In this document: one piece after another, positions 2,890 to 32,355 of the stretch
Layout of the letters: each line of letters opens with the position of its first letter
Numbering within the stretch: position 1 is the stretch's first letter
Source of the DNA: a virus
Taxonomy: Duplodnaviria > Caudoviricetes
Strand: one strand, 5' to 3'
DNA length: 64,000 bases
Virus record (IMG/VR): IMGVR_UViG_3300021431_000075
Coordinates: 576,001 to 640,000 of that record
The notes under the pieces: model-generated
Told to the model about the DNA's origin: nothing
The model's database searches: none
Seen by the model: only the letters and a program-made list of their open reading frames with translations
Made by a program: the position numbers and the translations under genes

Positions 2890-5385
2890 TTATCTACAAG
2901 TTTTTATAAATTCTGAAATTATTCCAGCATATACTTTATTTGCATCTCCACTAATATCAATATGCGGATGAACGCCGTCTTGATTATAAAGTCTAAAAAC
3001 ATTACAACCTGTGTTATTGTCAATGCAGTCGTTTGCTACACTTGGTCTTCCTTGTGACGATGGATATAATTCAAGAAAGTATTCTTTTGCAGTAGGAATA
3101 ATATGATTGCTGAAACCTAAATACTTATATACTTCACATAGTGGGAAAGCCCAGCTTTTTGCTATTGATTCTTGCGCTGAAATTATTGAAGAATATGAAG
3201 GTCTATCCCCGTTTTCATATTCATAATTGCTAATAAAAACAATTCTTGCCTTTGGTTTCCAAGACAAAATAACAGTAACAATGAAATTGATAGAACCGAT
3301 GTAACAATTTCTGTTAAGACTTGCTGCAAATGATGCAATATTTGATTCGCCAACTCTTTGAATCAATTTCGCTCCGTCGCCAATCGTATTATTTAAATCA
3401 TTTCTAATATTCAAGAAATAAGCAAGTCTTTCATAGTTATTTGCAGTCATAAATGAATCTTCAGCTAAAATACTATTCGATATATTCTCAACAGTTGGCT
3501 CTAATATTATATCTGGTGTGTCGTCGGAAAGTTTATAATATGTTTTGAAATCATTATGACCGTGATCAATGACAAATAAATCTGGAATCAAACCATTTGG
3601 GTTCTTTGTTGTGACAGTTCCTTCTAAATACGGCATAAGTTTATCTTCAAAACTTGACACTCTTAGTCTTGCAATGTCATTATTATCCAACACAAAGCCG
3701 GTGTTATTGAAATTGGAATCCGTACCATTGATGATATTTTCTATTTCTTGTTTTGTCCTTGACAAACATGATGTACAGTTATCTTTATTGATACTAACAT
3801 AGTCACCAGTCCTTACGTTTGCTCTACACATAGAAGAACCGACAGATTCATTGAAAATAGTAGCATTTAAATTTATACCAACTTCTTTTGGGTAATTACC
3901 AGCGACAGTTTCTTCAGTTCCCAATGCTGAATCTTTTCCGGCAGGAATAGACGTACCACACCACCAAATCGACTTATTATTCCAGTAATTTGAATGTCCA
4001 ATATTTGATATGTTTTCTTGCAATTCTGCTATATTTTCTGTATTTGTGTCTATTAAGTCAAATTTGCTTATTTTTTGTACGAATACAATGCTTATAATTT
4101 TTACAGTACTTGCATATAGTTTGCAATCTGTATTTTGAGCAGCAAATGTATAAGTATCATTAGAACCAGAATTGCACCAATCTATGACAATGCCGGCATT
4201 TGTAGTCAATGCCATTCCATAAGAACCGGACTTAATTATGTTTAAAATGACTTTCGTGTTTGCAGGAACATCATAGATTCTATAACTCGATGATGTTAAT
4301 TCCTTTAGATTTACTTGCGAACCTTTTGTTTGAGTTCCGTAAACATAATAACCGCCAGTTTGCTGATATATATCTGTATTGTTTGTTACATCTTTTGTTA
4401 TTTCAGATGAAGCTGATTCCTTATCCAAATATTTAGCGTCACTTTCTGATTTGCTATAAAATTGTTTAGTTAACTTGATGATATTTCTACAAGAAGCACT
4501 TGTTGTTGAACCTTCAACATATATTTTAATTGTGTTTGATGGAATTTCAAATATAGTCGGTTCTTCATATGCAATTCCAAGTTCTCCAAATATAGCCGTA
4601 TCTTGATTGGATGAATCAAAACAAATCATAATAGGGCTATTGCTATTGTTAGGTTGTTTTCCTGTAATTGCAACTTTGGTAGTTCCTTGTTCTAATGCAT
4701 ATTCAAGAACAGTAAAATCTTGATTTGTGCTAATCTTGTTTGTTGTTGTTATATTCGTGCAATATTGTGGATATGATGTTGTTGGAGTTATTTCTGTTCC
4801 AATTTCTTCTTCACTTAAATCATCAATCAATGAAGTTATTTTTTCATTTACTGTAACATCAGCATCCATCAAAGTTTCAATTCTTTCTTTGATTGTCTCT
4901 GATGAATTTATTACTTCTATTTTTACTACTTTATTTAATAATGCATGTATATAACCTGTAGATGAAATTGGAGCAAATTCATGACTGCCGCCATCTGTTG
5001 AAGTTACAAATTCTTTTACAATATCAGAACTATCAGTTAATACGAATCCGTAATTGCCAGTAGTGAGATATTCCAGTTGAACTTTGCAATTTGCTGGTAT
5101 TTCATATCTCTTGACATTATATGTAGTACTTCCGGGTGGTACAATTGCGATTGTTTGACCGACTACTTGGGTTTTAGAAGGATAACCAGAATAACTTACA
5201 CTTTCAGCAAGCGGAATAGTTATATTGTCAAAATGCAACTGCTTATCAATTTCTTCAAATTCATTAGTCAATGCAGCCTGCGTAATGCCACCATCTGTAT
5301 TATTGCCAAGTTCATCATAAAGAGTTCCTTTTATCTTATATGGAATATCTTGAATGTTTATTGATGTTACGATTGGATCGCCCAT
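2890..5385 (-). CDS. Outer cassette A: fibre/spike-like protein with C-terminal SGNH-like domain
   Basis: N-terminus MGDPIVTSINIQDIPYKIKGTLYDELGNNTDGG shared with 5781 and 39404; SGNH-like blocks WCGTSI, DHGHND, DGVHP. Confidence 0.65.
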   Translation of the reverse strand: MGDPIVTSINIQDIPYKIKGTLYDELGNNTDGGITQAALTNEFEEIDKQLHFDNITIPLAESVSYSGYPSKTQVVGQTIAIVPPGSTTYNVKRYEIPANCKVQLEYLTTGNYGFVLTDSSDIVKEFVTSTDGGSHEFAPISSTGYIHALLNKVVKIEVINSSETIKERIETLMDADVTVNEKITSLIDDLSEEEIGTEITPTTSYPQYCTNITTTNKISTNQDFTVLEYALEQGTTKVAITGKQPNNSNSPIMICFDSSNQDTAIFGELGIAYEEPTIFEIPSNTIKIYVEGSTTSASCRNIIKLTKQFYSKSESDAKYLDKESASSEITKDVTNNTDIYQQTGGYYVYGTQTKGSQVNLKELTSSSYRIYDVPANTKVILNIIKSGSYGMALTTNAGIVIDWCNSGSNDTYTFAAQNTDCKLYASTVKIISIVFVQKISKFDLIDTNTENIAELQENISNIGHSNYWNNKSIWWCGTSIPAGKDSALGTEETVAGNYPKEVGINLNATIFNESVGSSMCRANVRTGDYVSINKDNCTSCLSRTKQEIENIINGTDSNFNNTGFVLDNNDIARLRVSSFEDKLMPYLEGTVTTKNPNGLIPDLFVIDHGHNDFKTYYKLSDDTPDIILEPTVENISNSILAEDSFMTANNYERLAYFLNIRNDLNNTIGDGAKLIQRVGESNIASFAASLNRNCYIGSINFIVTVILSWKPKARIVFISNYEYENGDRPSYSSIISAQESIAKSWAFPLCEVYKYLGFSNHIIPTAKEYFLELYPSSQGRPSVANDCIDNNTGCNVFRLYNQDGVHPHIDISGDANKVYAGIISEFIKTCR

Positions 5386-5405: not shown

Positions 5406-5480
5406 TTATTGTTCAACCTGTGTTCTTTCAATAGAATTATCTTCAAAATCTGCATCCTTGATAATCAAAAGTTTTCCCAT
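5406..5480 (-). CDS. 24-aa leader micro-ORF MGKLLIIKDADFEDNSIERTQVEQ
   Basis: Manual translation; four paralogous micro-ORFs with synonymous differences, one per outer cassette. Confidence 0.7.
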   Translation of the reverse strand: MGKLLIIKDADFEDNSIERTQVEQ

Positions 5481-5504: not shown

Positions 5505-5527
5505 ATTGTTTCTAAACAGGTAAGTTT
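5505..5527 (-). repeat. Outer-family putative recombination site L1
   Basis: Perfect 23-bp inverted repeat with 5595-5617; 22-bp core AAACTTACCTGTTTAGAAACAA also at 37478-37501 and 39221-39244. Confidence 0.8.
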
Positions 5528-5594
5528 GCATCTTGCTGGTTTTCAAAGACTTCAATTTGTTCACAATAGCATTATATGAAGTTGTAACTAACTG

Positions 5595-5617
5595 AAACTT
5601 ACCTGTTTAGAAACAAT
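5595..5617 (+). repeat. Outer-family putative recombination site R1
   Basis: AAACTTACCTGTTTAGAAACAAT; 67-bp spacer to L1 has no ATAAATA motif. Confidence 0.8.
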
Positions 5618-5679: not shown

Positions 5680-5760
5680 ATGGGAAAGATTGTAATCATA
5701 AAGGATGCAGATTTTGAAGAAAATTCAATTGACATTCATCAAACATCATCAGAACAATAA
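5680..5760 (+). CDS. 26-aa leader micro-ORF MGKIVIIKDADFEENSIDIHQTSSEQ
   Basis: Manual translation; paralogue of 5406, 37375 and 39308 micro-ORFs. Confidence 0.7.
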   Translation: MGKIVIIKDADFEENSIDIHQTSSEQ

Positions 5761-5780: not shown

Positions 5781-8750
5781 ATGGGCGATCCAATTGTAAC
5801 GAAGATAAGCGTTCAAGACATTCAATATAAGATAAAAGGAACTCTTTATGACGAGCGTGGTTATAATACAGACGGTGGAATGACGCAATCTGCATTAAGC
5901 AGTTTGTTTGACAATATAGATCTTACATTGTCTGACATCAGAACAAAATCTGACGGTTTATCGCTCACATCAGAAGACGGTTTCTATATCATTGATGCAT
6001 CTGGAGACATAGCACTTAAAGTTGATAGCAATGGCGTGTTCGACGTATCTGCTATTGGAACGAATCTTCAAGAAATTATCGGAAACAAAGCGATACAAAC
6101 TGTTGATTCGTCGATTATAGAAATCAATAATACGATTGACAGTCTCGGAACAACTATTGATAATGTTGAAACAACTATTGATGATGTTGAAGGTGAAATA
6201 ACAGAATTGTCTAAAAATGCTCCACGTGTCGTAGATGATTACGGCGTCTATTTTACAGATGCTAACGGAAACATCATGTGGTTCATCAAGACATATAAAT
6301 GTTTAGAAGACGGTCTTTACTTCATAGATGAGCACGGCAATGTTGGTTTGCAATATGTAGATGGTGAATGGTCTTTTAGCAATCTAACAAATGTAGATGG
6401 AAGTGGTGGAGGAAGTTCTATTGATTCATCTACAATGGACCACTCATTGATAATGAGAGCAAATCGAGCAATAAAAGAACTCAATTCTGTCAAAAATCAA
6501 ATAGATCATTCTATACCATCATTATTAACACTTACTAATGGAGAAACACAATCAACATTCTCAACAACAGTTCAGAACACATCTGCTAAGGAAAAGGCAA
6601 TCGTTAGATTGAGATTGCACTATGGAAGTTCAAAGTACACTCCAGACAATAATGATATTTTCTTCAATGGAACTTGCAAAACGGATTTTAGCGACGTTAG
6701 GTTCTTTGACAGCAACGGAAACATGTTGAAAGCCGCATTCGGAGAACCGTTCCATCTTGGTGTGTATAGAGATACGAATCTGCATGGAACTGCACACGGA
6801 AGATACACAAAAATCACATCAAATGGTTATTTAATCAAACTTACCAACCAGGGAATTGTAATAACGAAGGATAATGGACAAACATGGACACCGATTGGTC
6901 CAAATGGTAGTGGTTATAAGAATTATTCCGAGTATCCGTCAGATGTGTATGGTTTTAGAGGTATGATTCCGGTTTTTGTTGATTCTAATAATAATTTATT
7001 TGGTTATTCAGGCGGAAAATTATATAAGATTGAACACGGAGCGAATTATGATTATGCAAATGAAGTAGAGGTCTGTGACTTTTCTTGGGTTTATACAGAT
7101 CCGTCAACAGGAGATACAAATACAGTATATCCGGAAATAACGCCGGCTGGAATGACTGAAGATATAAATGGCAATCTCTATTTCGGAACATATGCGGATA
7201 CAAAGTATTATCATGTAGACATATTTGTATCTACAAATCAAGGAAATTCCGGAACATGGGTTAAGAAATATCATAAAAGTGAAACAGACCTTGATGCTAC
7301 AGGGAATCGTCAAAAAGATTTTCAACATGTTCATCATGTCCATGCAGACAAATACTCTACCAAAGTATATGTCGGTATTGATGGCGGCTTTCCGGCACAA
7401 GGTCCAACACTCATATACACTGATGATGCCGGAGAAACATGGAATGATATCACAACAAGGTTAAAAGAGCATAGAGGTCATGACCAGTATCCTGCATATT
7501 TTGGACAAACATATAAGTTAGGTGGAGGTGAATCATATACTCTTGGTGGAAATTCAATCATCAGAGGAAATGCGGATGATACTGAATTTGAAGATGTTTG
7601 GAAAGGTTGGGGCGGAGTGCGTTTCATAAGCGACTTTGGCGATGATTCTCTGCTAATTGTCGGTATCCAAAGAAATTCTCATTTTGAAGAAAACCAGATA
7701 CTCTTATCATATGACCAGGGCAAGACTTGGAAAAACTTGATGCGCGTTGATACGCCCAAAAAGGTTACAAGTGGAGATGGATTCAGAAAAGCAATATATT
7801 GTGGAACTCTTGCTGGTGATACAGCACCTTGTGTTATTCTGAATCAGGGACATTTCACAGAAGCGTTTAGAGTATACAAAGAGACGAATGATTATTATAG
7901 AGAAGTTGAAGTAGAAGTTGATGACGTTCCATCTTCCGCTTCTGAAATAACAATCACTGCGAAAACAGGTTACGTAATGCCGTATCCATATACTACTGTT
8001 CGTGGTCTTGAAGTTGACGGGCTTGTATACGAGATTCCGTTCAATGAAGGTTGCGGAACAATGGTTCAAGATTCTCTTGGAAATATTGTTTCTATTGACG
8101 GAACAATTTCTTGGGAAACAAAAGAAGAACCAGTCAGATATGGAGAATATTCAAGCGAAGAAGATAAACCATTTGCATTCTCATCCGCAGCAAAAGTCAA
8201 TGGAATTCTTGACTTTGGAAAGATTGACGAATTGAATTTCTCAAATGGATATACGATAACTTTCTGGTGGAACGAGAAGAACCGTTTGTGTCATTATACG
8301 GAAGAAGAAAGATATGACCACGGTTATTTGACGAATCCTGTAATTTTGAGAATCCTGTCAGCCGGTAACTATGACTTGGTTAGAACAAGGGAAGCGATGT
8401 TCAGCATTATTCCAAGAGGCGCGACAACAAGAAACATTACCAATGGTCATTCAGCGGGAATGCAAGCGCTTCCTTGCAGTGATAATTATTGCTTTATCTG
8501 CATTGTTGTTAGCGACACAAGAATTTATCTTTATCTCAATGGCTCGTTATCAGGTGGCAACACTGTTGGTTCTTGGGTTGGTTTTAATGATATGAATCTT
8601 TCAGAGAACAACTTGGTCATAGGTAGTGCAGATACAGAGACGCCGGGTTATATTTCAGATTTCAAAATATACAACAGACAACTTTCAGATACTGAGATTA
8701 GAGACATTTACAAAGGCTTCAATTACGAGCCGCGACCAGAAAATCCTTAA
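5781..8750 (+). CDS. Outer cassette B: fibre/spike-like protein with DUF2341-like, BNR/Asp-box propeller (sialidase-like) and LamG/ConA-like domains
   Basis: Shared MGDPIVTKI N-terminus; CKTDFSDVRFFD; Asp-boxes TKDNGQTW, TDDAGETW, SYDQGKTW; C-terminal GYISDFKIYNRQLSDTEIRDIY. Confidence 0.7.
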   Translation: MGDPIVTKISVQDIQYKIKGTLYDERGYNTDGGMTQSALSSLFDNIDLTLSDIRTKSDGLSLTSEDGFYIIDASGDIALKVDSNGVFDVSAIGTNLQEIIGNKAIQTVDSSIIEINNTIDSLGTTIDNVETTIDDVEGEITELSKNAPRVVDDYGVYFTDANGNIMWFIKTYKCLEDGLYFIDEHGNVGLQYVDGEWSFSNLTNVDGSGGGSSIDSSTMDHSLIMRANRAIKELNSVKNQIDHSIPSLLTLTNGETQSTFSTTVQNTSAKEKAIVRLRLHYGSSKYTPDNNDIFFNGTCKTDFSDVRFFDSNGNMLKAAFGEPFHLGVYRDTNLHGTAHGRYTKITSNGYLIKLTNQGIVITKDNGQTWTPIGPNGSGYKNYSEYPSDVYGFRGMIPVFVDSNNNLFGYSGGKLYKIEHGANYDYANEVEVCDFSWVYTDPSTGDTNTVYPEITPAGMTEDINGNLYFGTYADTKYYHVDIFVSTNQGNSGTWVKKYHKSETDLDATGNRQKDFQHVHHVHADKYSTKVYVGIDGGFPAQGPTLIYTDDAGETWNDITTRLKEHRGHDQYPAYFGQTYKLGGGESYTLGGNSIIRGNADDTEFEDVWKGWGGVRFISDFGDDSLLIVGIQRNSHFEENQILLSYDQGKTWKNLMRVDTPKKVTSGDGFRKAIYCGTLAGDTAPCVILNQGHFTEAFRVYKETNDYYREVEVEVDDVPSSASEITITAKTGYVMPYPYTTVRGLEVDGLVYEIPFNEGCGTMVQDSLGNIVSIDGTISWETKEEPVRYGEYSSEEDKPFAFSSAAKVNGILDFGKIDELNFSNGYTITFWWNEKNRLCHYTEEERYDHGYLTNPVILRILSAGNYDLVRTREAMFSIIPRGATTRNITNGHSAGMQALPCSDNYCFICIVVSDTRIYLYLNGSLSGGNTVGSWVGFNDMNLSENNLVIGSADTETPGYISDFKIYNRQLSDTEIRDIYKGFNYEPRPENP

Positions 8751-10705: not shown

Positions 10706-12457
10706 TTAAACTATTAATCTTTTCATTTCAGATAGATAAAACTTAAAAACTTTATCTTCTCCGGCTTGTGATTGGTGTTTGCCGTCATATGTATAAAGTC
10801 CATAACGTTTAGAATATCCATTATTCAACACTCCGTTATTGGTTGCTTCTTCATAAGTGCTTATCTGACCAGTCGAATCTTTAATAAAGTTGTATATCGG
10901 ATTTGTTCTTGACAAGTTAGTTCTGTCATTTGCAACACCCGGATTTCCATCATTGTAATATGGCTGGCATGGTTCAGTGAACGGAGAGAAACCACAATAA
11001 CGCTCTCCATCTATTATCTGAATGCACATGCGTTTGCATACATCTATTATAACATCATTCACTCGTTTAGCACTTTCACCATTCATATTACCCAATCTTT
11101 GAAATACAGTTCCGACAACAATATATGCAGTCGGATATTGTCTCTTGAGATATTCAAGATAGTATCTCATGCAAGCATATGTAGTCGTGGCGCTTTCAAG
11201 TTCTTTATAATTATATGTAGAGAATGCATCAGAAGCGGTTCCAATATCTTCTGTGTTACTAATGTCATTTCCACCAAGTTGAATGATAATTATATCAGGT
11301 TCTATATTTTCTGACTCAAAACTGTTTATCTGAGCGCCTAAACAATTTGTAAGTGTTTGGTCTTGATACTTATTTCTCCATGTAGCACCACCATTCGCAT
11401 AGTTTCTAAAAGTGTCTATTTCCAATTCTTCAGCAAGACGTTGTGCCCATTTGGTATTTCCGGTAGCGGTTGAAGAATCACCAAACACAATCATTGTTTT
11501 CCCTGATGTCGGCAAAGAATGTTTTAACGATTCGATTTTGTCATTCACTTCTGTGATTTTTGAATTAGTATATTCAATCGGATTCGATGTACGTTTCCAT
11601 AACGCTTTTGACAAAGATGTCCAAAGTGAGTTGAATATCAATGTGTCAAAAGAACCATCACATTCTATTGTTTCTGTTACAATTTCGGAACTTGTGCTTG
11701 AACCAATTTCTATAATTATATCATTCTTCACTTTTGCATATAGTTTTCCAGTTGAACCTCCTTGACCTGTTATTATGAACACATCTCCGATTGAAAAATC
11801 AGTTACTATTAAATATCTTCTTGTAGTTTTTGATGTATCAGGTGTAATTTCGGACAAACGATCACCGACATTTGTCTGAATCATTCCTACATTATTTGCA
11901 AAATCATCTTTGAAGTCAATGTCTATGTTTCCAGAAATGCTTGCTTTTATATTTTGCAATTCTTCTGTTATGATGTCTTTATATGGTCTGTAACTTTTAT
12001 GGATGATATTCAAATCTGCAGTTCTGCTGTTGAATATCAAAGTGTCAAATGTGCCATCGCAATAAACTTCAATCGTAGATAAAGAACTATTGCCTTCTGC
12101 ATATATGATAATGTCATCTTTTGCTTTCGCAACTAATTTTCCTGTTACACCTCCAGCACCTGTGATGATAAAAACATCTCCAGAAACAAAATCACTTGTT
12201 ATATAATAAGACCTGTTTGTTGATTCTTGGACAGTCTGCTCAGAAACTTTTCCATCAATTGGCGTTGGAAATATTCCATGTATGAATCTATTTTTAATAT
12301 CTTCATCATTTCTGTTCAGCAATAATGATTGTATAGTATTGGTTATAGTTGCTTGTGTTACGCTGCCGTCCGTGTTATAACCAAGTTCATTATATAAATT
12401 ATCCTTGATGTCATAAACAACACCTTTGACTCTTATTTTAGTTACATTATTACTCAT
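10706..12457 (-). CDS. Inner cassette 1: fibre-like protein with SGNH hydrolase domain
   Basis: Start reassigned to MSNNVTKIRVKG by paralogy; FGDSS, NGGA, QLGGND, DGKH blocks. Confidence 0.75.
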   Translation of the reverse strand: MSNNVTKIRVKGVVYDIKDNLYNELGYNTDGSVTQATITNTIQSLLLNRNDEDIKNRFIHGIFPTPIDGKVSEQTVQESTNRSYYITSDFVSGDVFIITGAGGVTGKLVAKAKDDIIIYAEGNSSLSTIEVYCDGTFDTLIFNSRTADLNIIHKSYRPYKDIITEELQNIKASISGNIDIDFKDDFANNVGMIQTNVGDRLSEITPDTSKTTRRYLIVTDFSIGDVFIITGQGGSTGKLYAKVKNDIIIEIGSSTSSEIVTETIECDGSFDTLIFNSLWTSLSKALWKRTSNPIEYTNSKITEVNDKIESLKHSLPTSGKTMIVFGDSSTATGNTKWAQRLAEELEIDTFRNYANGGATWRNKYQDQTLTNCLGAQINSFESENIEPDIIIIQLGGNDISNTEDIGTASDAFSTYNYKELESATTTYACMRYYLEYLKRQYPTAYIVVGTVFQRLGNMNGESAKRVNDVIIDVCKRMCIQIIDGERYCGFSPFTEPCQPYYNDGNPGVANDRTNLSRTNPIYNFIKDSTGQISTYEEATNNGVLNNGYSKRYGLYTYDGKHQSQAGEDKVFKFYLSEMKRLIV

Positions 12458-12504
12458 TGATTGCAAAATGATTACTTTTAGTATTAAAATTACAAAACTG
12501 CGAG

Positions 12505-12518
12505 GTTTCTTATTCAAG
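12505..12518 (-). repeat. Inner-family site S1 (one mismatch: CTTGAATAAGAAAC)
   Basis: 13/14 match to CCTGAATAAGAAAC; variant base at 12517. Confidence 0.7.
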
Positions 12519-12599
12519 CGAGTTTGCTACAGCATAGAACTACTTACAATTCTCTAATGCACAGAAACTTACACCAACTAATTGAAAGAGTAGAACTTA

Positions 12600-12613
12600 C
12601 CTGAATAAGAAAC
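12600..12613 (+). repeat. Inner-family site S2
   Basis: Exact CCTGAATAAGAAAC preceded by GAACTTA. Confidence 0.8.
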
Positions 12614-12660
12614 GTTGGAATTTTGATATTTTAATACTAAATGTAATCATTTTGCAATCA

Positions 12661-14700
12661 ATGAGTACGAATGTAACCAAGATGAGAGTCAAGGGTGTTG
12701 TGTACAATCTTAATAAATTATATGACACAACTGGTTCTAATACAGACGGAAGTGTAACACAATCATTTTTTACAAGAAAGTTATCAGGAAAGAAAATAAG
12801 CATACCAGATACTGCAGATAATAGGTATTTGGTATCATCGACTGCAAAGTGGACTAATTCAAACTATTCAATTCTAATAGATGTCGTTTCTTTTCGTGGA
12901 AATAAAATAATCATCAATAATGTAATCGTTACAGGAACGAAATATGCATTCTTGATTGATAGTGATGAAACTTCTGTCACTTTGTGTAATGGAACTTCTA
13001 TCTCTGATTATACAAATTTCACTGCATTGACGATTCCAAATGATGCTAACTACTTATATCTTTATCTTGGAAACAATGTTCCGACTTATATGCCTGCTGT
13101 GTTTGTATATGGCACTGAAGAAGGTATTGAATACAGATTGACAAAAATAGAAAATGATGTTTATCAAATATCTGGCGAGACAGCAGAAATCACCAACTAT
13201 ACAAACAAATATATTATGTTATCAAGAGGAAGTTGGTTAGATGCACCGAATGAAAACTCTCATTGTGTCATAGTTGATGTTTCGAAGCAACGTAGCAATA
13301 AGATTAAAACCAACATCGGCGTTCAGTATGCGTTTATATCTGTTGACAATGGACAAAAAGTTATATATTGCAAAGATGTCAACGACACTGACTTACAAGG
13401 TTCTATAACATTAAATTCATTTTATACTATTCCAGATGATGCTATAGAATTTTATGTGTTTTATACAGGAGACACGATTCCAACTTTTGAATTTGAAACG
13501 CCGATAAAAGAAGGCATCAATCAGAAAATTATTGGTATTGAATCTGAATTAACAACCATTCAGCAAAATATAAATTCAGTTAAAGATAAAGTCAACGGTC
13601 GCATTCTTGAAATTCCAAATGCCGCTGACAATATATATTGTGGTTTAACATCGGGCAAATGGATGAGTGGAAATTATTCAATATTGCTTGACGTTTCCAA
13701 GTTCAGAGGCGAACAGATAAAGGCATCACAAGGCAACCAATGGGCATTTATGTTATCAGACGGCGGTCATGCCGTTGGTGGTATATGTGTATTTTGTAAA
13801 AATTCTTCAAACGAAGACATAAAGGGAACATCATTCGATAAGAACACATGGTATGACATTCCGTTGGATGCAAATTACTTTTATTTATATTTAAGCAATA
13901 ATCCATCTACTGTTCCAACTATAGAAATCACAGGAGAAGTTTACGGATTAGACAATATCATAGAAAATATCGACGCGATTTCATCTTCAACTATTATAAC
14001 AAAAGGAAAGAAGATAGCTTGGTTTGGTGATAGCCTAAGTCAACTTATGGAATTGCCTCATCTTGTTGAAAAAAGAATAGGTCAGACTGTGTATGATTGT
14101 AGTTTTGCAGGAGCGCCAATATATGGTTCCGGTTCAAACACAGACAATTATTATGATACCGGTTTCTGTTCTCTTGTATCGCAAATTGTAGCAAATGATT
14201 TCACACCGTTGCAAACTGCTCTTGACAATCAATTAAGCCAGGGACAAATAACACAAGATAGTTATAACAAGAAAATGATAAACTACAACATCTTGTCAAA
14301 TATTGATTTTAGTGAAATAGATAAGATTGTTGTATTTGCAGGAACAAATGATAAAGTTTATTCAACATTAAACATAGAGCCGTTGAAAACAGGTTTGAGA
14401 AATGCATTGCAATCGCTTTTCACAAATAAACGCAACATTATTGTTTATGGAATATTGCCACCATATAGAACAGATTGGGATGAGACATCTAACGGAACAA
14501 AAAGAACATTGTTACAAATCAATAGTGCAATTGCAGAAGTGTATTCTGAATTCGGCATTCCGTATCTTGATTTCTTCCATGCATGCTGCACCAATCAATA
14601 TAACTATTTGCAATGGATGAACAATGACGGTTTGCATCAAAATGCTGCCGGAGACAAGATGTGGGCTGATAAGATAAGCGCGTGGTTGTTGAGTTGTTAA
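12661..14700 (+). CDS. Inner cassette 2: fibre-like protein with repeated beta modules and SGNH hydrolase
   Basis: MSTNVTKMRVKG start; FGDSL, FAGA, AGTND, DGLH blocks. Confidence 0.75.
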   Translation: MSTNVTKMRVKGVVYNLNKLYDTTGSNTDGSVTQSFFTRKLSGKKISIPDTADNRYLVSSTAKWTNSNYSILIDVVSFRGNKIIINNVIVTGTKYAFLIDSDETSVTLCNGTSISDYTNFTALTIPNDANYLYLYLGNNVPTYMPAVFVYGTEEGIEYRLTKIENDVYQISGETAEITNYTNKYIMLSRGSWLDAPNENSHCVIVDVSKQRSNKIKTNIGVQYAFISVDNGQKVIYCKDVNDTDLQGSITLNSFYTIPDDAIEFYVFYTGDTIPTFEFETPIKEGINQKIIGIESELTTIQQNINSVKDKVNGRILEIPNAADNIYCGLTSGKWMSGNYSILLDVSKFRGEQIKASQGNQWAFMLSDGGHAVGGICVFCKNSSNEDIKGTSFDKNTWYDIPLDANYFYLYLSNNPSTVPTIEITGEVYGLDNIIENIDAISSSTIITKGKKIAWFGDSLSQLMELPHLVEKRIGQTVYDCSFAGAPIYGSGSNTDNYYDTGFCSLVSQIVANDFTPLQTALDNQLSQGQITQDSYNKKMINYNILSNIDFSEIDKIVVFAGTNDKVYSTLNIEPLKTGLRNALQSLFTNKRNIIVYGILPPYRTDWDETSNGTKRTLLQINSAIAEVYSEFGIPYLDFFHACCTNQYNYLQWMNNDGLHQNAAGDKMWADKISAWLLSC

Positions 14701-14729
14701 AAACTAAATAAACTATTCAATAAAAAGAT

Positions 14730-14756
14730 AATGAGCAACTATTTTAGTTGCTCATT
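14730..14756. terminator. Bidirectional terminator
   Basis: AATGAGCAACTA-TTT-TAGTTGCTCATT between convergent cassettes. Confidence 0.75.
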
Positions 14757-14768
14757 TTATCTTCAATT

Positions 14769-15545
14769 TTAATTATGCTCTATATGGAAATAAGTGTCTA
14801 TGTTTGATTCATTCAAAACAAATGTTACATCAACTGTTTGCGCTGCACTTCCATAAGCAGCCATGTTCAAAGCGAAACCGCCGCCTGTTGATGGAAGATA
14901 ACTTGACAAGTCGATAACTGTTTCTACTGTTGCACTACCTTTCCATTGCGAATCTCTTGAAATTTCTGTCAAATCATTTCCGGTTGCATAACAAACTCTG
15001 ACTTTATATCCGGGCGCTACATAAATCGTATAGTTGTTATCACTAACTGCTGTCAAGCATTTGGTAGTAGTTCCTTCAACCGTATCATACCATCCATATA
15101 TCTTGTTGTAATAAGTATCTGTTGAAGTATAAACTTTGAATTTTTTATCCGTTCCCCAACTACCGGTTACTGAAACGATATTGTGTTCTTCATAGAATGA
15201 AACATGTTCTTCTACTGCAATTGTCTTAGTGGCAGAAATCAATGAATTATAAACAGACGTTGCACGGATAACAATACTTTGCGCACTTCTATTCATATCA
15301 ATCGTCAAAACGCCATAACTGTTGATAGACGCGATTTCGCTTCCTTCTACAATGCTCCATTCGACGTCGGTTTCTTCCGTGTTGGCAGGATTGTAAACTA
15401 TACTATATTCAACGCTTGTCGTGTTGCTTGATATAGTTGAAGGTCCATCAATGCTTATGCTTTCAACACGACCTGCCAAGAAAGTTACTTGTCCCAAGTT
15501 ATTATTTGAGAAATCCAAATCGGTCACTTTTATCGCGATACCCAT
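14769..15545 (-). CDS. Cassette 3 partner protein with Ig-like (Big_2-type) domain
   Basis: MGIAIKVTDLDFS N-terminus; YNPANTEETDVEWSIVEGSEIASINSYGVLT. Confidence 0.65.
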   Translation of the reverse strand: MGIAIKVTDLDFSNNNLGQVTFLAGRVESISIDGPSTISSNTTSVEYSIVYNPANTEETDVEWSIVEGSEIASINSYGVLTIDMNRSAQSIVIRATSVYNSLISATKTIAVEEHVSFYEEHNIVSVTGSWGTDKKFKVYTSTDTYYNKIYGWYDTVEGTTTKCLTAVSDNNYTIYVAPGYKVRVCYATGNDLTEISRDSQWKGSATVETVIDLSSYLPSTGGGFALNMAAYGSAAQTVDVTFVLNESNIDTYFHIEHN

Positions 15546-15564
15546 AATTGTTTCTTATTTTGAT

Positions 15565-16905
15565 TTATAAAATTGTTGTTTTGGTATAAGGAGTCTTGTA
15601 TGCATGCTCGGATGCACTCTTTGCAGAAGTTAATGCAGAAGAAGTGATTGTTCCGAATGATGATGTTTGTGGATATACATTCGGGTCTGTGTTTGAAGTT
15701 GACGAATCACTAAGAGCAAAAACGTTTGTTCCCCATATGGGTTTCCAATCTATTTCCGCAAGCGGTTTCATATCTCCGAATATTCTAAACAATGACAAAT
15801 AGAGAACATAAGAGCCGATTAATCTACCAATGCCGTCTTCCATATGTGCTCCGTCTGATGTAATATGACCAGCCGAACCATAAGCATCAAGTTCCTGATT
15901 CGTTCTTCCGTTTTGAATAGCGGTTCCGGAAGGAACTATGAAATCAACGATGCCGTTGGAAACCAGCGTTTGACAGATTGAACACATCGTCCCCCACATC
16001 GTATCGCCATATGTAATCTCTCCTTCTGTTGATTTTTTCGGATTCGTCAAAACATAGCCCCAAATTGGCTTATAACCGATATAACCATTAACAAGAGACG
16101 TTAATGTCTGCAGACCGGTTCCTTCATTGTTTATGATTGTGGTTTCACGGTCGCTCAGGTCTGATGCCTGATGCGTCATGATTATATTCCACTTATTGCC
16201 GTTGTCAAGAGCATTTTTAATCGTAGTGTTCGCGCTTCCGCTCGAAGTCCAATAGCCATTAGTGCTTTTGTATTCGAAATAATAATATGGCGTTTCATTA
16301 TTGAATCTGTTAATGTGTCCTTCAATATTCATCCCAGACAAATATAACACACCGATTATAAGAGTAATTCCGCTATTTGCTTCTATTAGACGTGGAAGAT
16401 ATACGCAGTTGTCGATGCTGAATGAATTACCGATGAAGAGAATCTTTATTTCCTTTGCTGAACTTCCGCTAATAATCGGAACATCATCAACCAGAGCACA
16501 AGACAAACCATCTTCGTCATACTTCATTCCGATGTTGCCATCTGCATCAACGACATAAAAACCATGTTCCATCACTTTCACACAATAAGGCATGGACATC
16601 TTGACGATGTCAAGCAGGGACGTTTTGAAATGAGTGCTCAACTTAGCAACATCGAATCCGTTCTCGTCATATTTCATGCCGACTTTTCCATTATTGTCTG
16701 TAACTGTGAAACCTTCTTCTTCTGTTATGCTTATTGATGAGAAACTGGATTCAACATCATTGACAAGATCGATAACATTGTCAAAACATTCAGTTATTGC
16801 AGACTGTGTCATTCCGCCATCTGTATTAGAACCGGTCGTGTCATATAACTTATTAAGGTCATAAACAACACCTTTGACTCTCACCTTGGTTACATTCGTA
16901 CCCAT
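15565..16905 (-). CDS. Inner cassette 3: fibre-like protein with SGNH-like (DUF4886-type) domain
   Basis: Start reassigned to MGTNVTKVRVKG; ILFIGNSFS, IVPSGTAIQN, DGAH. Confidence 0.7.
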   Translation of the reverse strand: MGTNVTKVRVKGVVYDLNKLYDTTGSNTDGGMTQSAITECFDNVIDLVNDVESSFSSISITEEEGFTVTDNNGKVGMKYDENGFDVAKLSTHFKTSLLDIVKMSMPYCVKVMEHGFYVVDADGNIGMKYDEDGLSCALVDDVPIISGSSAKEIKILFIGNSFSIDNCVYLPRLIEANSGITLIIGVLYLSGMNIEGHINRFNNETPYYYFEYKSTNGYWTSSGSANTTIKNALDNGNKWNIIMTHQASDLSDRETTIINNEGTGLQTLTSLVNGYIGYKPIWGYVLTNPKKSTEGEITYGDTMWGTMCSICQTLVSNGIVDFIVPSGTAIQNGRTNQELDAYGSAGHITSDGAHMEDGIGRLIGSYVLYLSLFRIFGDMKPLAEIDWKPIWGTNVFALSDSSTSNTDPNVYPQTSSFGTITSSALTSAKSASEHAYKTPYTKTTIL

Positions 16906-16952
16906 TGATTGTAAAATGCTTACTTTTAGTATTAAAATTACAAAACTGCGAG

Positions 16953-16966
16953 GTTTCTTATTCAGG
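16953..16966 (-). repeat. Inner-family site S3
   Basis: Exact reverse complement of CCTGAATAAGAAAC. Confidence 0.8.
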
Positions 16967-17047
16967 CGTGTTTGATGCGGCATATAACTACTTACAATTC
17001 TCTAATGCACAGAAACTTACACTAACTAAGGGAAAGAGTAGAACTTA
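16967..17047 (+). repeat. 81-bp spacer repeated between back-to-back sites
   Basis: Identical (reverse complement) to 32218-32298; about 8 mismatches to 12519-12599. Confidence 0.85.
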
Positions 17048-17061
17048 CCTGAATAAGAAAC
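17048..17061 (+). repeat. Inner-family site S4
   Basis: Exact CCTGAATAAGAAAC. Confidence 0.8.
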
Positions 17062-17103
17062 GATGTTTTTGAACACTTATATAGTAAAATTAGACATCAA
17101 CTA

Positions 17104-20085
17104 ATGAGCACTAACGTAACCAAGATGAGAGTTAAGGGAGTTGTTTATACTCTCAATGGAAAGTTATATAATTCTACCGGTTCGAACACAGACGGTAGCA
17201 TGACGCAAGCTGTTATTACATCTGAATTGACAGATGCTAAAGATATGGCAGAGTCTGCTCTCGCTATTGCTGAACAGGTTCGTGAAGAAGGAACGACAAC
17301 TATTGAAGGAAATGTGACGAACAACCCTGATGAAGAAGACTTGACCACTGTTATCAATGCACAGACGAATCTTGGTGAACTCAAACTCAAGAACAGAGCT
17401 TATGTTCCTGTTGAAAATTCAAAAGGCTATGTCATTCTCCGAAAGAATAATAATTTTTCATCTCAACTAACACAAACCAACACTGTTTATGAGATACGAT
17501 ATAATTTTGATTTGAATGGTGGAATAGTTGAAATTCCAGAAAACTGTACATTAAAATTTAATGGTGGTTCTATCTCCAATGGAACACTTGTTGGTTCTGA
17601 AACATATATTGATGCGATTGATGAAAATATTTTAATACAAATAACAATTGGTGGAACTTGGTCAAATGAGATAATAACAGACAAATGGTTTAATGATGCA
17701 AATATATTAAACATTAATGCTATTATGCGTGAAGATGTATATCAGCATATTTATATGACTAAAGATTATATTTGCAATGCACTTGAAAACACTGGTTATT
17801 TAATTCCATTAAGCAATACCTATATTCATTTAATCGGTTCAATTACAAGCAATCTAACAATTACAAATCATAGATTGATATTCATATATACAAATCCTAC
17901 ATTTGAAAGTTTAAAAAATATAACTATTGATGGCGAACGAGTTGGAAAAATAAACGGTAATCGAAGTCTTATTCCAATTAGTGAAGAAGGAGCTTTACAA
18001 TCAAATGGAAAATACAAACATACAGAAAACGGAATAGGTATCGCAATACGTGGAAATATAGATGGTGTTACAATTAAGAATCTTGAAATTTATGAATGTC
18101 ATTGTGATGGTATTTATGCAGCATCTGGAAAAAACATTATTATACAAGATTGTTATATTCATGGTTGTATCAGACAAGGAATCTCTATTTGTTCTGATGT
18201 GTCATCTGTTACAAATTCGGAAAATGTTTTGGTAAAAGATTGTCGAATAGAAAATATTGTAGATTATGAGAACAACGGTTACGTTATTGAATCCGGACCG
18301 GGTGCTGCTATTGATATAGAACCGAACAGAAATGGTGGTTTTTGTAAAAATATATCAATAGAAAATATTACATTAAACAACTGTGTAAAAGGTATTCAAT
18401 TGGATGCATCACGCTCTGTAGCAACTGGAGAAAGTTTTGTTAGCAATGTAAGAGTATGTAACATTAAAGCAAGCAATGTATCAAGTTATCTATTAAGTAC
18501 ATATTCTAAGGCGGAAAACATAACAATTGAGAATATTACAGTTGAACACGTGAAGTATGAAAAAGATGATAATGCTTCATCTGGTTTATTCTTTATGTGT
18601 ATGTATGCTAAAAATATATTGCTTAATGATGTTGATGCAGTTGGGATAGGTAACGGATGTGTAATAAACGGTTCAACAGATATCTTGATAACGAATAGTA
18701 CAATAAGTTGCATTCGATTATTCTTCAGTGATTCAACAGATAATGAAAATGTAGAATTCAAAAATTGTAGAATTGATGCAAATAATATCAGCAATTCTCA
18801 TCAAGCAATTAGCGGAATAAATTTCTCATTAAATTATTTTAATATAATTTCTACTGACGGCTTCAACACATGGTTGTCCAATACCATATTTAAAGATAAT
18901 TATATTACAGGTTCAAACATTAGATTCGGTGAAAGCAATACAAGTAATGTGTTGAAAAACATTATTTTTGAGAACAATGAATTCAATATTACAAGAAATG
19001 CCCAAATTATTGTTTCTGCTGCCGATGTTCTTTTTGCAAATAATACATTCTTTTGTAATAATAATGCAAATGTTAAAGTTATAGTTAGAGGAATTGTAAA
19101 TAATGCTAATATTCGATTCATAGATAATCAACTTATTGATTATGTAAATAATTATTCAGATTTGATATATGATGGAAATCTCGGTTCATTGTATATAATA
19201 ACTATTGATGGAAAAATATATGATAATGGTTCTTGGAATTATACAAACGGAGATGCCATTATGATAAAACGTGGGTTGCTTGAAAACATACCTGATATAG
19301 AATCAGGAAATGACGGTGTTTCATATTATGCTACCGATATTCAAAAGAATTGCTACATTCAACAAAGAAATGACAAATTCTTATGGGCAGATAGTGATGG
19401 TTATCCTGTGTTCATTTACAATTATGAAGGAAGTGCCAATGTATTACATATTATTGAAAAACAAGGTCCATTGTCAGACAAACCAATATGTGGAAAAGTA
19501 GGAATGCGGTATTTTGAAACTACAAATAACCAACCTATTTATATAAAGAGCGGTACAGTTCCTGCATATGACATCACATTATCATTTGTTGACAATCCAA
19601 CTTATACCGGTTCTATTAATGAAGGTTATAGTGGTGGAAATTTTGTATTTACGTTTGAGAATGTAAAAAAGAGAATTGCTTTTCAAAAAACAAATAATGT
19701 TGGAACTATATTAACAGAAATATTTAACGCATTAAATCCATATTTTAACATTACAGTAGATACAGAAAACAACAAATTTACAATAATTGGAAATTTTATA
19801 GGTTCACATGTTCCACAAATATCTGGAGTATATATATATTCTACATATCCATTAAAATTGAGTGCTTCAAGAAGTGCTATAACTCGTGGAAGTCTTATTT
19901 GGGTTGATGAAGAAGGAGTAGATGTAACGAACGTCTCTACTGTCAAGGGAACTACTGTTCAGAGAGAAGCATTGACTCTTGCCGCTACTAACGAAGGTCT
20001 GAGGTACTATGACACTACTCTTAAGAAGTACGTTCTCTGGAACGGAACACAATGGACAAATCTTGATGGAACAGCATTGTCTTAA
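17104..20085 (+). CDS. Inner cassette 4: tailspike-like right-handed beta-helix (pectin-lyase-like) protein
   Basis: MSTNVTKMRVKG start; Asn/Ile-rich beta-helix repeats (DGIYAASGKNIIIQDCYIHGCIRQGISI, AAIDIEPN). Confidence 0.7.
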   Translation: MSTNVTKMRVKGVVYTLNGKLYNSTGSNTDGSMTQAVITSELTDAKDMAESALAIAEQVREEGTTTIEGNVTNNPDEEDLTTVINAQTNLGELKLKNRAYVPVENSKGYVILRKNNNFSSQLTQTNTVYEIRYNFDLNGGIVEIPENCTLKFNGGSISNGTLVGSETYIDAIDENILIQITIGGTWSNEIITDKWFNDANILNINAIMREDVYQHIYMTKDYICNALENTGYLIPLSNTYIHLIGSITSNLTITNHRLIFIYTNPTFESLKNITIDGERVGKINGNRSLIPISEEGALQSNGKYKHTENGIGIAIRGNIDGVTIKNLEIYECHCDGIYAASGKNIIIQDCYIHGCIRQGISICSDVSSVTNSENVLVKDCRIENIVDYENNGYVIESGPGAAIDIEPNRNGGFCKNISIENITLNNCVKGIQLDASRSVATGESFVSNVRVCNIKASNVSSYLLSTYSKAENITIENITVEHVKYEKDDNASSGLFFMCMYAKNILLNDVDAVGIGNGCVINGSTDILITNSTISCIRLFFSDSTDNENVEFKNCRIDANNISNSHQAISGINFSLNYFNIISTDGFNTWLSNTIFKDNYITGSNIRFGESNTSNVLKNIIFENNEFNITRNAQIIVSAADVLFANNTFFCNNNANVKVIVRGIVNNANIRFIDNQLIDYVNNYSDLIYDGNLGSLYIITIDGKIYDNGSWNYTNGDAIMIKRGLLENIPDIESGNDGVSYYATDIQKNCYIQQRNDKFLWADSDGYPVFIYNYEGSANVLHIIEKQGPLSDKPICGKVGMRYFETTNNQPIYIKSGTVPAYDITLSFVDNPTYTGSINEGYSGGNFVFTFENVKKRIAFQKTNNVGTILTEIFNALNPYFNITVDTENNKFTIIGNFIGSHVPQISGVYIYSTYPLKLSASRSAITRGSLIWVDEEGVDVTNVSTVKGTTVQREALTLAATNEGLRYYDTTLKKYVLWNGTQWTNLDGTALS

Positions 20086-20140
20086 TCAATGTGATTTATT
20101 TTATAGTTTTTTGTGATCGCTTGATTCGAATCTTATAAAT

Positions 20141-20198
20141 AAAGAGAGCATTCAATGAAATCGTAACTACAAAGCAACATTTCTTGAATGTTCTCTTT
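20141..20198. terminator. Stem-loop after cassette 4
   Basis: AAAGAGAGCATTCAA...TTGAATGTTCTCTTT. Confidence 0.55.
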
Positions 20199-20216
20199 TC
20201 TTCTTGAAAGATGTTA

Positions 20217-20224
20217 GATAAATA
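20217..20224 (+). promoter_or_regulatory. Putative late promoter GATAAATA of tail tube gene
   Basis: Same octamer upstream of the prohead protease and in both switch segments. Confidence 0.55.
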
Positions 20225-20303
20225 ATAAAAGATGGTCGGGCTGTTCTTAATGTGACAGTTCCCGGATTAACCAAGTTGATAAAATACATTATTATATAAT
20301 AAT

Positions 20304-20915
20304 ATGCCAATAAGTACTCCTCAGATTACATCGCCGGGTCTTCTCGGTTTGAGTCATTTCAGGAACAGCCGTGTTTCAACGTCTCTTTGGGAACCTATAT
20401 ACCAGAACCTGTTTAGCGTGACGCTTGTTCCGCCAGAGCCACTTCAGGGCGACGACGAAAGAGTAAGAGTCATTCTTGAAGGCGTTCAGCAAGTCGGCAC
20501 AATACCTGCATCAAAGGCTTCGACCGCAGTTGAGCAGAAGTACAAGTTCGCTACCCGCTCGTTCTCTAACGCGACTCCTGAGAACACGACGATGGACTTG
20601 CAGATCAGCTTCGCTCTCAACCTCTCATATGACAACGAGACTCCGGAGAACTACACGTACAAGTTCCTTCGCCAGTGGGTTGACCTTGTGTATGATCCAT
20701 TGACTGGTCGTCAGGGACTTAAGAGGGACTATGTCGCTCCTTCCATGACAATCACGATGCACGACCGTGCAGGAAGTCCGTACTGGCAGTGGGTTATGTG
20801 GTACATATTCCCTACGACAGGTGCAGGCGGTCCGACACTCAACTACACAAGCGGCGACTTGATGTCAATCCAGATGACATTCAGATGCGACTGGTGGGAT
20901 GAGGTTTGCCTCTAA
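20304..20915 (+). CDS. Tail tube protein (T4 gp19-like)
   Basis: 203 aa; EPIYQNLFSV, FLRQWVDLVYDPLTGRQGLKRDY, IFPT, LNYTSGDLMSIQMTFRCDWW typical of the gp19 family; core-like codon usage. Confidence 0.8.
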   Translation: MPISTPQITSPGLLGLSHFRNSRVSTSLWEPIYQNLFSVTLVPPEPLQGDDERVRVILEGVQQVGTIPASKASTAVEQKYKFATRSFSNATPENTTMDLQISFALNLSYDNETPENYTYKFLRQWVDLVYDPLTGRQGLKRDYVAPSMTITMHDRAGSPYWQWVMWYIFPTTGAGGPTLNYTSGDLMSIQMTFRCDWWDEVCL

Positions 20916-20967
20916 TCCTTTGTTTGAAATCTGTCATAAACATAAATATTTTTTGTTAATAAAAAGA

Positions 20968-20996
20968 AAGATGCAGTCAGTTCATGGCTGCATCTT
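20968..20996 (+). terminator. Terminator of tail tube gene
   Basis: AAGATGCAGTC...GGCTGCATCTT followed by a T-rich tract. Confidence 0.65.
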
Positions 20997-21028
20997 CTAT
21001 TTTTGTTTTTATTCTCTAATGAATTATT

Positions 21029-21059
21029 AAAAAAAAGGACAGCCAAATATCGGCTGTCC
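21029..21059 (-). terminator. Terminator of cassette 5
   Basis: GGACAGCC-loop-GGCTGTCC with A8 on + (U-tract on -). Confidence 0.75.
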
Positions 21060-21092
21060 ATGAATTATGATAAGTATGTTAATTTATTATAT

Positions 21093-25742: not shown

Positions 25743-25772
25743 TTTAGACTTATTAGAATTTTGGGTTAAATT

Positions 25773-25801
25773 CGTTTCTTATTCAGGTAAGTTTTGTTCT
25801 T
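25773..25801 (-). repeat. Inner-family site S5 (left arm of promoter switch)
   Basis: 29-bp inverted repeat with 26161-26189, 1 mismatch. Confidence 0.85.
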
Positions 25802-26160
25802 TCCTTTCCGTCTTTGAAAACTGCTCGTTCTTTCCTTAAAAATGTTTTTTTATTTTTCAAGTCAAGAACTTCATCGAAAACGATTTTACTATTTATCTTG
25901 ATTTGACGCTTTCTTGTTATTCTGTTTTTGCTAATCAGATAAAAAGAAACATCCATTTCGATTGAGAGTTCTCAAATGCTGACAGTCACTTGTCATGACT
26001 AATCAGCCAAAGAAACACTTTTATTTTCATTATTTATCTTTGCATTTTGCGAGACCATTCAAAACGCTTTTCAGGTTTATTAGCACAGAACAGCTGCTGG
26101 ACTGCGATTTCTTGAAGTTAAGAAATCTTAATAAAAACACGTAACGCATTATTAATATTG
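25802..26160 (-). promoter_or_regulatory. Putative invertible promoter segment of the inner array
   Basis: Non-coding; GATAAATA on minus strand at 25890-25897 and 26031-26038; 26013-26038 matches the protease promoter/leader 50341-50365 except for one inserted base. Confidence 0.7.
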
Positions 26161-26189
26161 AAGAACAAAACGTACCTGAATAAGAAACG
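26161..26189 (+). repeat. Inner-family site S6 (right arm of promoter switch)
   Basis: AAGAACAAAACGTACCTGAATAAGAAACG. Confidence 0.85.
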
Positions 26190-26229
26190 TTGGATTTTTG
26201 ATTTTAATACTAAAAGTAAGCATTAATCA

Positions 26230-27768: not shown

Positions 27769-27790
27769 ATCTTTATATTAAAACAATTAT

Positions 27791-28342: not shown

Positions 28343-28363
28343 ACAAATTTATTCAAACATAAA

Positions 28364-28395
28364 AAAGTTCGTCAAAATAATTCTTGACGAACTTT
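28364..28395. terminator. Bidirectional terminator
   Basis: AAAGTTCGTCAA...TTGACGAACTTT 12-bp stem. Confidence 0.75.
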
Positions 28396-28409
28396 GTGTT
28401 TTATATTGT

Positions 28410-29354: not shown

Positions 29355-29540
29355 ATAATTTTACAATTTAATTTATTTTTTGCAAAAGTACGGCTTTTTT
29401 TTTAATTAGCCGTAGTTTTCACAAATAAAATTGCAAAATCACCCCAATTATATAATGATGTATAAAAACATAATCAAATTATGAAACTATCATCCAGTCT
29501 TGCAAGTGCTTTTAATAATTTGTTAATCTTTTCCATTGCG

Positions 29541-32156: not shown

Positions 32157-32203
32157 CGATTGCAAAATGATTATATTTAGTATTAAAATATCAAAAATCC
32201 AAC

Positions 32204-32312: not shown

Positions 32313-32355
32313 CTTGCAGTTTTGTAATTTTAATACTAAAAGTAAGCATTTGCAA

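Follow-up and report, generated by a model that had tools for sequence, protein, structure and literature searches.

A silent pair of inverted sites between two fibre-type genes of a 673-kb phage: a probable vacant slot of a promoter-moving shufflon

Introduction

Between two complete, divergent fibre-type genes of a very large phage, neither of which has the putative promoter motif of this genome in front of it, a short sequence occurs twice in inverted orientation around a spacer (positions 5505-5617), and the question raised by this locus is what role such a pair plays. The window (the whole stretch of DNA analysed, 64,000 nucleotides; coordinates below refer to it unless given as genome positions) corresponds to bases 576001-640000 of a 673,114-bp virus record that has direct terminal repeats and is rated complete, with sample names indicating a sheep-rumen metagenome origin. 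Genes nearby include those for a prohead protease, a head-closure-like protein and a terminase, and homologues of a neighbouring 1248-aa protein are encoded on contigs of 528-552 kb, a size range to which the largest gut phages belong. Our analysis indicates that the 5505-5617 pair probably serves this 673-kb phage as a docking slot, at present empty, in a shufflon that moves a promoter by site-specific recombination.

Results

The site pair and its copies in the genome

An earlier, sequence-only reading of this DNA had described a perfect 23-bp inverted repeat around 67 bp, and both arms (5505-5527 and 5595-5617) are indeed exactly complementary around the spacer 5528-5594; with its flanks included, the inverted repeat is 32 nt long at 91%. 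The 22-mer TTGTTTCTAAACAGGTAAGTTT has four exact copies in the window, at 5506(+), 5595(-), 37478(+) and 39223(-) (chance expectation 0.00, from 100 shuffles of the window). The same reading had placed this 22-bp core on both sides of a recombinase gene, which is the case, with the first position at 37478 as given and the second at 39223 rather than 39221 (2 nt off). A genome-wide search located a second silent pair, identical to the first, at genome 566142(+)/566231(-) (window -9858/-9769, outside the window). This third outer pair makes the outer system one of six sites and six cassettes (E, F, A, B, C and D), and the 22-mer accordingly has six exact copies per 673 kb, with identical polarity relative to the cassette in all six. 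A GGG variant is the single-base mark that distinguishes the spacer of the E/F (566-kb) pair from that of the A/B pair.

The region 5505-5617 is predicted to form a hairpin (-43.9 kcal/mol, z = -7.4), as follows automatically from two inverted sites. The absence of ATAAATA and TAnnTTTG that had been noted for this stretch was found for ATAAATA between A and B, and for TAnnTTTG in so far as it never lies wholly within the 67 bp; TAAGTTTG, a match to TAnnTTTG, spans the junction between site a and the spacer (5521-5528, + strand). The features of the outer and inner systems are collected in Table 1.

Table 1. Positions of sites, segments, cassettes and upstream ORFs (window coordinates; R, mobile segment).
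Feature	Position	Strand	Description
Cassette A	2890..5385	-	Complete 831-aa fibre-type gene; shared N-terminus, no Pfam domain; no [AG]ATAAATA in 150 nt upstream; read as silent
Short leader, cassette A	5406..5480	-	24-aa upstream ORF (MGKLLIIKDADFEDNSIE...)
Site a	5505..5527	+	Cassette A side; GTTTCT end towards cassette, AAGTTT end towards spacer; perfect 23-nt arm
Placeholder spacer	5528..5594		67 bp, no promoter motif; 66/67 positions as in spacer of 566-kb pair
Site b	5595..5617	-	Putative recombination site, cassette B side
Long leader, cassette B	5680..5760	+	26-aa upstream ORF
Cassette B	5781..8750	+	Complete 989-aa fibre-type gene; BNR and Laminin_G_3 matches; read as silent in present state
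Inner array	10706..34836		Eight fibre cassettes in four back-to-back pairs; related site CGTTTCTTATTCAGGTAAGTT
Inner mobile promoter segment	25773..26189		415 bp, no ORF; two GATAAATA on - strand, at 25897 and 26038
Cassette C	36029..37354	-	441 aa; adjoins terminator end of R in present state
Site c	37478..37499	+	22-mer copy
Terminator-like hairpin	37537..37568	-	Directly after recombinase gene, at c end of R
Tyrosine recombinase	37595..38587	-	330 aa
Promoter motifs of R	38769..39140	+	Two GATAAATA, at 38769 and 39133; face out via site d towards cassette D
Site d	39223..39244	-	22-mer copy
Cassette D	39404..41362	+	652 aa; weak alpha/beta-hydrolase matches; outer cassette behind promoter end in present state
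Cassettes E and F	Either side of genome 566142/566231 pair, outside window		E, 967 aa; F, 689 aa
Upstream ORF copies	5406-5480, 5680-5760, 37378-37452, 39309-39383; L001 near 10004-10078, 10279-10353	-, +, -, +; -, +	

Fibre cassettes, leaders and upstream ORFs

The three back-to-back outer pairs (E/F, A/B and C/D) consist of divergent complete genes, each behind the same 22-bp site. All 14 cassettes, six outer and eight inner, have a common N-terminus of ~45 aa and diverge beyond it, with GDSL esterase, beta-helix, BNR/LamG, M14 peptidase and other domains in their C-terminal parts. Cassette F resembled phrog_4201 (tail fiber, 2.7e-39), the inner cassette at 12661-14700 phrog_5240 (a tail-fibre PHROG, 1.7e-11) and the inner cassette at 17104-20085 the crAss001 tail fibre gp22 (PDB 7qoj_J, 6.3e-10); cassette E gave a weak Phage_fiber_rpt match, and for cassettes A and B the Pfam and PHROG comparisons returned no fibre match beyond the shared N-terminus. 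Judged by the similarities of F and the two inner cassettes, the cassettes are phage tail-fibre or receptor-binding proteins. Downstream of cassette D, a 1473-aa ORF (42429-46850, - strand) without a Pfam match is internally repetitive, with an 87-bp (29-aa) unit in tandem and further repeat families (D1, D7, D10, D11, D14, D17).

The leaders outside the outer sites exist in two forms, short and long, and they pair up as the sequence-only reading had stated (5401-5527 with 37373-37499 at 81%; 5594-5732 with 39222-39360 at 94%), the leader homology of 81-97% reaching well past the outer sites. The sequence specific to the A leader is CAATTTCTAAAAAATAAG, and the long leader is in part similar to a stretch of the inner promoter segment (repeat family D20). 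A conserved upstream ORF of 24-26 aa (MGK[LI][LV]I[IV]KD..FE[ED]NS..) precedes each of the six outer cassettes, as well as two in a related phage, with many synonymous differences among its copies, and is missing from the inner cassettes. Fusion of this ORF to the main gene by frameshifting was considered and rejected, since the frame offset varies (0, 1 or 2), which makes it a separate small ORF. The outer sites lie 24-71 nt upstream of this ORF and 120-170 nt upstream of complete genes with their own ATG.

The mobile segment and its recombinase

The segment R (1.77 kb) lies between sites c and d, with C and D divergent outside it, and carries the sole Phage_integrase-type gene of the 673-kb genome. 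The catalytic residues of the encoded tyrosine recombinase (R187, K210, H290, R293, H316 and Y325) were invariant in an alignment of 29 homologues; the protein scored 24.6 bits against PF00589 (cut-off 27.1) and 27.7 against the SAM-like N-terminal domain PF13102 (cut-off 22.3), and resembled phrog_1 (integrase, 5e-15). Sequence searches returned no NCBIfam equivalog, no named subfamily and no PDB relative for it, no match to the recombinase segment was present among public phage records, and no relative of the recombinase was found in IMG/VR. A host-type -7 motif stands 40 nt before its ATG. With a tyrosine recombinase as the local enzyme, the system is not one of the serine-invertase (Gin/Cin/Min) type. 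Five or six resolvase-family serine recombinases of ~205 aa are encoded elsewhere, at genome 76.6, 86.0, 119.4, 198.8, 308.1 and 655.5 kb (40-540 kb from R).

R had been described beforehand as a promoter/recombinase segment, and its sites do enclose the recombinase and two outward-facing GATAAATA motifs; the motifs, however, are confined to one end and a terminator occupies the other, so that R has the look of a promoter cartridge working in one direction. In the present genome, cassette D lies behind its promoter end.

A putative promoter motif

The [AG]ATAAATA motif was examined by crude whole-genome ORF calling and counting of 8-mers in 308 upstream regions. It was ~20-fold enriched upstream of ORFs, occurred in 107 of the 308 regions with a peak 20-40 nt before the ATG, and stood at 22-41 nt in front of the genes for the terminase, the 1248-aa protein, a 461-aa protein and the prohead protease. 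On these motif statistics, [AG]ATAAATA is probably a promoter of late type; it resembles the T4 late promoter TATAAATA. Examples in the window are found at 1284(-), 1312(+) and 20217(+), and one subclass continues as ATAAATATCTTATAATA.

Within genome 556-620 kb, the motif occurs near cassettes solely inside R and inside the inner 415-bp segment, and it is absent from every spacer and cassette leader. Cassettes A, B, C, E and F are therefore without the promoter motif in the present genome, with D behind the promoter end of R, and A and B are presumably silent. The motifs of R stand 170-270 nt from start codons, as against the usual 20-40 nt. Minor promoters could be provided by the TAAGTTTG at 5521 and by a stretch of the B leader (5629-5658) that weakly matches a sigma-70-like promoter. 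Host-type TAnnTTTGCA motifs are enriched genome-wide, which suggests Bacteroidota as the host phylum.

The inner array

The four inner pairs have their sites at 12504/12594, 16952/17042, 25773/26169 and 32203/32293; the outer and inner site families have GTTTCT and CAGGTAAGTT in common and differ in the intervening 3-4 nt. In the window the motifs of the inner promoter segment face a 1549-aa gene, while in three other assemblies this 415-bp segment was found at the 12.5-kb pair, and in one sample (S006) the slot that it had vacated held a spacer of the 17-kb/32-kb pair type. The crossovers fell at the exact segment border, the left one inside the 12 nt of GTTTCTTATTCA and the right one inside a stretch of 22 nt, a precision that argues for site-specific and against homologous recombination. 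The inner placeholder spacers have one good and one degenerate end (AGCGAGTT or GGCGTGTT in place of GGTAAGTT), and slots with such spacers still exchange, the degenerate half moving with the spacer; the essential part of the site thus seems to be the cassette-proximal GTTTCTTATTCA.

Alternative states in other assemblies

Other assemblies were retrieved by exact-protein look-ups (A, B, C, D, E, the recombinase and one inner cassette), with flanks 99.98-100% identical to the window; several probably stem from the same sheep-rumen data set and are not fully independent. Sample S005 (L002) was in the reference state, C-R-D. In L003 and L024 the c (terminator) end of R was joined to F, and in S006 (L003/L007/L048, scaffold_1616) the sequence ran from the R terminator end into F and was collinear with the reference from there across A-spacer-B as far as the inner array, while a further S006 contig (L015) had C-spacer-D back to back, with the SNP of the E/F spacer in its 67-bp spacer. 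A 2.6-kb contig of a JGI metagenome (L004) read E-R-F, and the reference junction R-C was recovered from the same metagenome (L023), which thus contained both states. A further assembly had the promoter end of R joined to E (L044) and a spacer joined to C (L021), and in one WGS contig R was joined to F. An exchange of R with the E/F placeholder, at sites 47.2 and 49.1 kb apart, was consequently represented by both of its reciprocal products. The outer crossover was resolved to 46-69 nt, a stretch including leader homology, so that homologous recombination is excluded at the outer sites only by analogy with the inner system.

All alternative arrangements seen were even (double-inversion) states, in which R and spacer had been swapped and the intervening DNA kept its reference orientation, and no single-inversion junctions (e.g. 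E-spacer-C, F-spacer-D) were found among the assemblies. The restriction to even states may be due to chance, to few or related samples, to shared ancestry or to selection against the inverted block. Neither the exact-protein contig look-ups nor a scan of metagenome and viral contigs for R-end/site junctions yielded R joined to A or B, the partners of R being C, D, E and F only, and all five or six contigs crossing the 5505-5617 pair kept A-spacer-B. The short-read unitig contigs L005, L006, L010 and L012 end at the sites and are uninformative there, because the shared site plus leader is longer than the k-mer. The alternative junctions expected of a promoter shufflon were therefore seen at the E/F sister pair and in the inner system, and not at the A/B pair, and we infer that sites a and b are used from the identity of the sites, the missing promoters and a relative in which R faces the A-slot cassette.

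Two SNPs in the B leader (5638 and 5641; TTTTAT vs CTCTTG) were all that distinguished S006 from the reference over 12.7 kb around the A/B pair (L007, L008, L009). They are clustered and lie 21-24 nt outside the core in two assemblies. The variant B leader has the form of the D and E leaders, which suggests gene conversion between leaders. They mean that the A/B region exchanges information, without indicating the route.

Related phages

A relative from another sheep-rumen sample (L032) has a recombinase 84% identical to that of R, and its R segment is likewise bounded at either end by the same site. Two GATAAATA face out of the end of this segment opposite the recombinase 3' end, a terminator hairpin follows the recombinase, and upstream ORFs precede both cassettes. 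The left flank is the counterpart of genome 574-581 kb (1248-aa, 461-aa and 489-aa genes, A slot) in the same orientation, the right flank that of 566-555 kb (E slot, terminase) reversed; by this order of flanks, the promoter end of R faces the A-slot cassette. Relative to the present genome, the 15-kb block that separates the E/F from the A/B slot has the inverse orientation, with breakpoints at the pairs, and this arrangement is the best evidence bearing on the A/B pair. A rule that the short leader faces the terminator end and the long leader the promoter end fits all states of the present phage and was dropped, the pairing in L032 being the opposite. An IS605-type TnpB gene (417 aa) is inserted within the L032 R segment (8693-9946), and copies 89% identical to it occur twice in the present genome (308602-309852 and 173898-175148), one of them beside a small serine recombinase (308136-308522).

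In a second relative, with a recombinase 57% identical, GTTTCTAAnCAGGTAA forms inverted repeats around the recombinase and the cassettes have shared N-termini. The site is thus kept beside recombinases of 84% and 57% identity, whereas the leaders diverge.

Discussion

Several elements of the proposed mechanism were observed directly, namely the sites, a lone recombinase whose catalytic residues are intact, the motif distribution, the exchange of R with the E/F placeholder and the 12-nt inner crossover. The exchanges are probably performed by the R recombinase, and this one enzyme may serve both the outer and the inner site family. By geometry, any plus-strand outer site can invert with any minus-strand outer site. 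The recombinase would exchange sites in inverted orientation, and each exchange would consequently invert the DNA between them, 32-34 kb for the A/B pair and 47-49 kb for E/F; after two successive exchanges, R and a placeholder would have changed places. The promoter end of R would come to lie before A through recombination of site a with site d (33,695 bp between them), and before B if R flipped first (c x d) and site b then recombined with the site left of R (~31.9 kb), and the cassette behind the promoter end would be transcribed through site and leader. The a x d inversion (33,695 bp) and the b x c inversion (~31.9 kb) both contain the whole inner array, which lies wholly inside any inversion of either kind and, as a self-contained unit, would be carried along.

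The earlier claim that activation of A or B needs a ~32-34 kb inversion flipping the inner array is borne out by this geometry for each elementary exchange; a lasting flip is not required, because the states seen are double inversions that keep the intervening DNA unflipped. Its central proposal, a silent slot of a long-range promoter shufflon, agrees with sites that are those flanking R, with the lack of the motif in front of A and B and with long-range junctions at the identical sister pair. For the phage as a whole, we consider it somewhat probable that this huge and probably lytic virus possesses a combinatorial host-range switch with two relocating expression sites, one with the recombinase aboard and a single enzyme for both families, in which two promoter segments would hop among parked whole-gene cassettes by paired inversions of tens of kb and leave placeholder spacers behind.

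The rearrangements could also be the work of general homologous recombination between the inverted 130-300-nt leader/N-terminal repeats, the 22-bp repeat being the conserved end of a leader and the recombinase serving something else. Such recombination is often efficient in large phages, the leaders are homologous well beyond the sites (81-97%), the outer crossovers are resolved only to 46-69 nt, and the D/E-type SNPs of the B leader resemble gene conversion. We nevertheless regard it as an improbable source of the exchanges, because the inner junctions, within 12 and 22 nt at the segment border, are too short for it, chimeric leaders did not turn up, the mobile segment carries the recombinase along, and conservation of the site beside 84%- and 57%-identical recombinases contrasts with the divergence of the leaders. 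That A and B are not silent at all, being served by an unrecognised promoter class in their leaders, with the inverted repeat as a hairpin insulator or terminator and R docking merely adding expression, we rate as no less improbable. The strength of the hairpin would suit this proposal (-43.9 kcal/mol, z = -7.4), as would the TAAGTTTG at 5521, the weak sigma-70-like matches in the leaders and the resemblance of part of the long leader to a stretch of the inner promoter segment (D20); however, inverted sites produce a hairpin automatically, none of the twelve leaders away from a promoter end contains any of the tested promoter motifs, in contrast to the neighbouring structural genes with their [AG]ATAAATA, and replacement of the spacer by R is demonstrated at the identical sister pair.

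The slot may, finally, be a fossil, in which the A and B sites are intact through recent duplication and no longer used, so that only E/F and C/D exchange R. The uniform spacer state of the five or six crossing contigs and the lack of any R-A or R-B junction fit this reading, but few samples were available, both sites match at 22 of 22 positions, both ORFs are intact (831 and 989 aa) with conserved upstream ORFs, and in L032 R occupies a slot bordering the A-side genes while the block between the silent pairs is inverted. We consider a fossil slot the least probable of the three alternatives, and an empty docking slot that is still in use remains the preferred reading of the 5505-5617 pair.

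Inversion systems of other phages provide the nearest comparison within viruses. Gin with the G segment of Mu, Cin with the C segment of P1 and Min of p15B are serine invertases that act with an enhancer within 3-4 kb and exchange the stretch that encodes the C-terminus, with promoter and N-terminus remaining fixed, Min having several crossover sites. As in these systems, a phage-encoded recombinase would change the tail-fibre version, and hence the host range, of the present phage; unlike them, it has a tyrosine recombinase, complete genes, a promoter that moves and spans of 32-49 kb. Tyrosine recombinases are found in the Rin shufflon of Bifidobacterium prophages (PMC6109161) and at the receptor-binding gene of BV01-like phages (PMC13596623), in both of which short 3' coding cassettes are exchanged over ~1.7 kb of one gene. 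Here too a tyrosine recombinase lies beside or inside a variable receptor-binding region and configurations differ between samples, whereas the present phage has 14 full-length genes with their own start codons and two site families with one mobile promoter segment each. An in-frame exchange of 3' segments behind a constant 5' part, as in Rci/Rin systems, does not describe it, the sites lying upstream of complete genes. In the known phage examples (Mu, P1, p15B, Bifidobacterium, BV01-like), it is coding tips that are swapped within a few kb.

On the side of the likely hosts, Bacteroides promoter/PUL shufflons use tyrosine recombinases. In the BT1033-52 promoter/PUL shufflon of B. thetaiotaomicron, one promoter is recombined before alternative whole operons by long-range inversions in the cluster (10.1101/521070), and the SusC/SusD shufflons of B. 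fragilis, as cited in that paper, represent a comparable host-side system. The present phage resembles these shufflons in that a promoter is moved before alternative genes, and the host phylum is likely to be the same, given the TAnnTTTG motifs in the phage. The Bacteroides systems, however, are chromosomal, concern nutrient uptake and recombine in the 5' coding ends of susC-like genes, in contrast to a non-coding promoter segment with its own recombinase, empty slots held by placeholders and tail-fibre genes.

Promoter shufflons, tail-fibre inversion and tyrosine-recombinase fibre shufflons are therefore already known, and the 5505-5617 pair is one component, the empty slot, of a layout that differs from them in its whole-gene cassettes, a mobile promoter cartridge with its own recombinase, placeholder-held empty slots and two nested systems. 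No paper on shufflons in megaphages or jumbo phages was found in the literature, and to our knowledge a layout with two relocating expression sites has not been described for any virus.

Changes of phage host range are usually ascribed to mutation, fibre-tip swapping or hypermutation. The present phage appears to carry 14 complete receptor-binding or depolymerase genes that are chosen by promoter movement, a promoter-based choice that parallels the surface variation of its likely Bacteroidota hosts, and the silent pair at 5.5 kb is structural proof of the existence of empty slots and of their being preserved intact. If the proposed system is correct, up to 48 fibre combinations (six outer, eight inner) would be available to one phage, assembly breaks at these sites would have a known cause, and a new compact tyrosine recombinase with a defined ~20-bp site, acting over 50 kb, would become available. 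It would also explain part of the reason for the large size of such phages.
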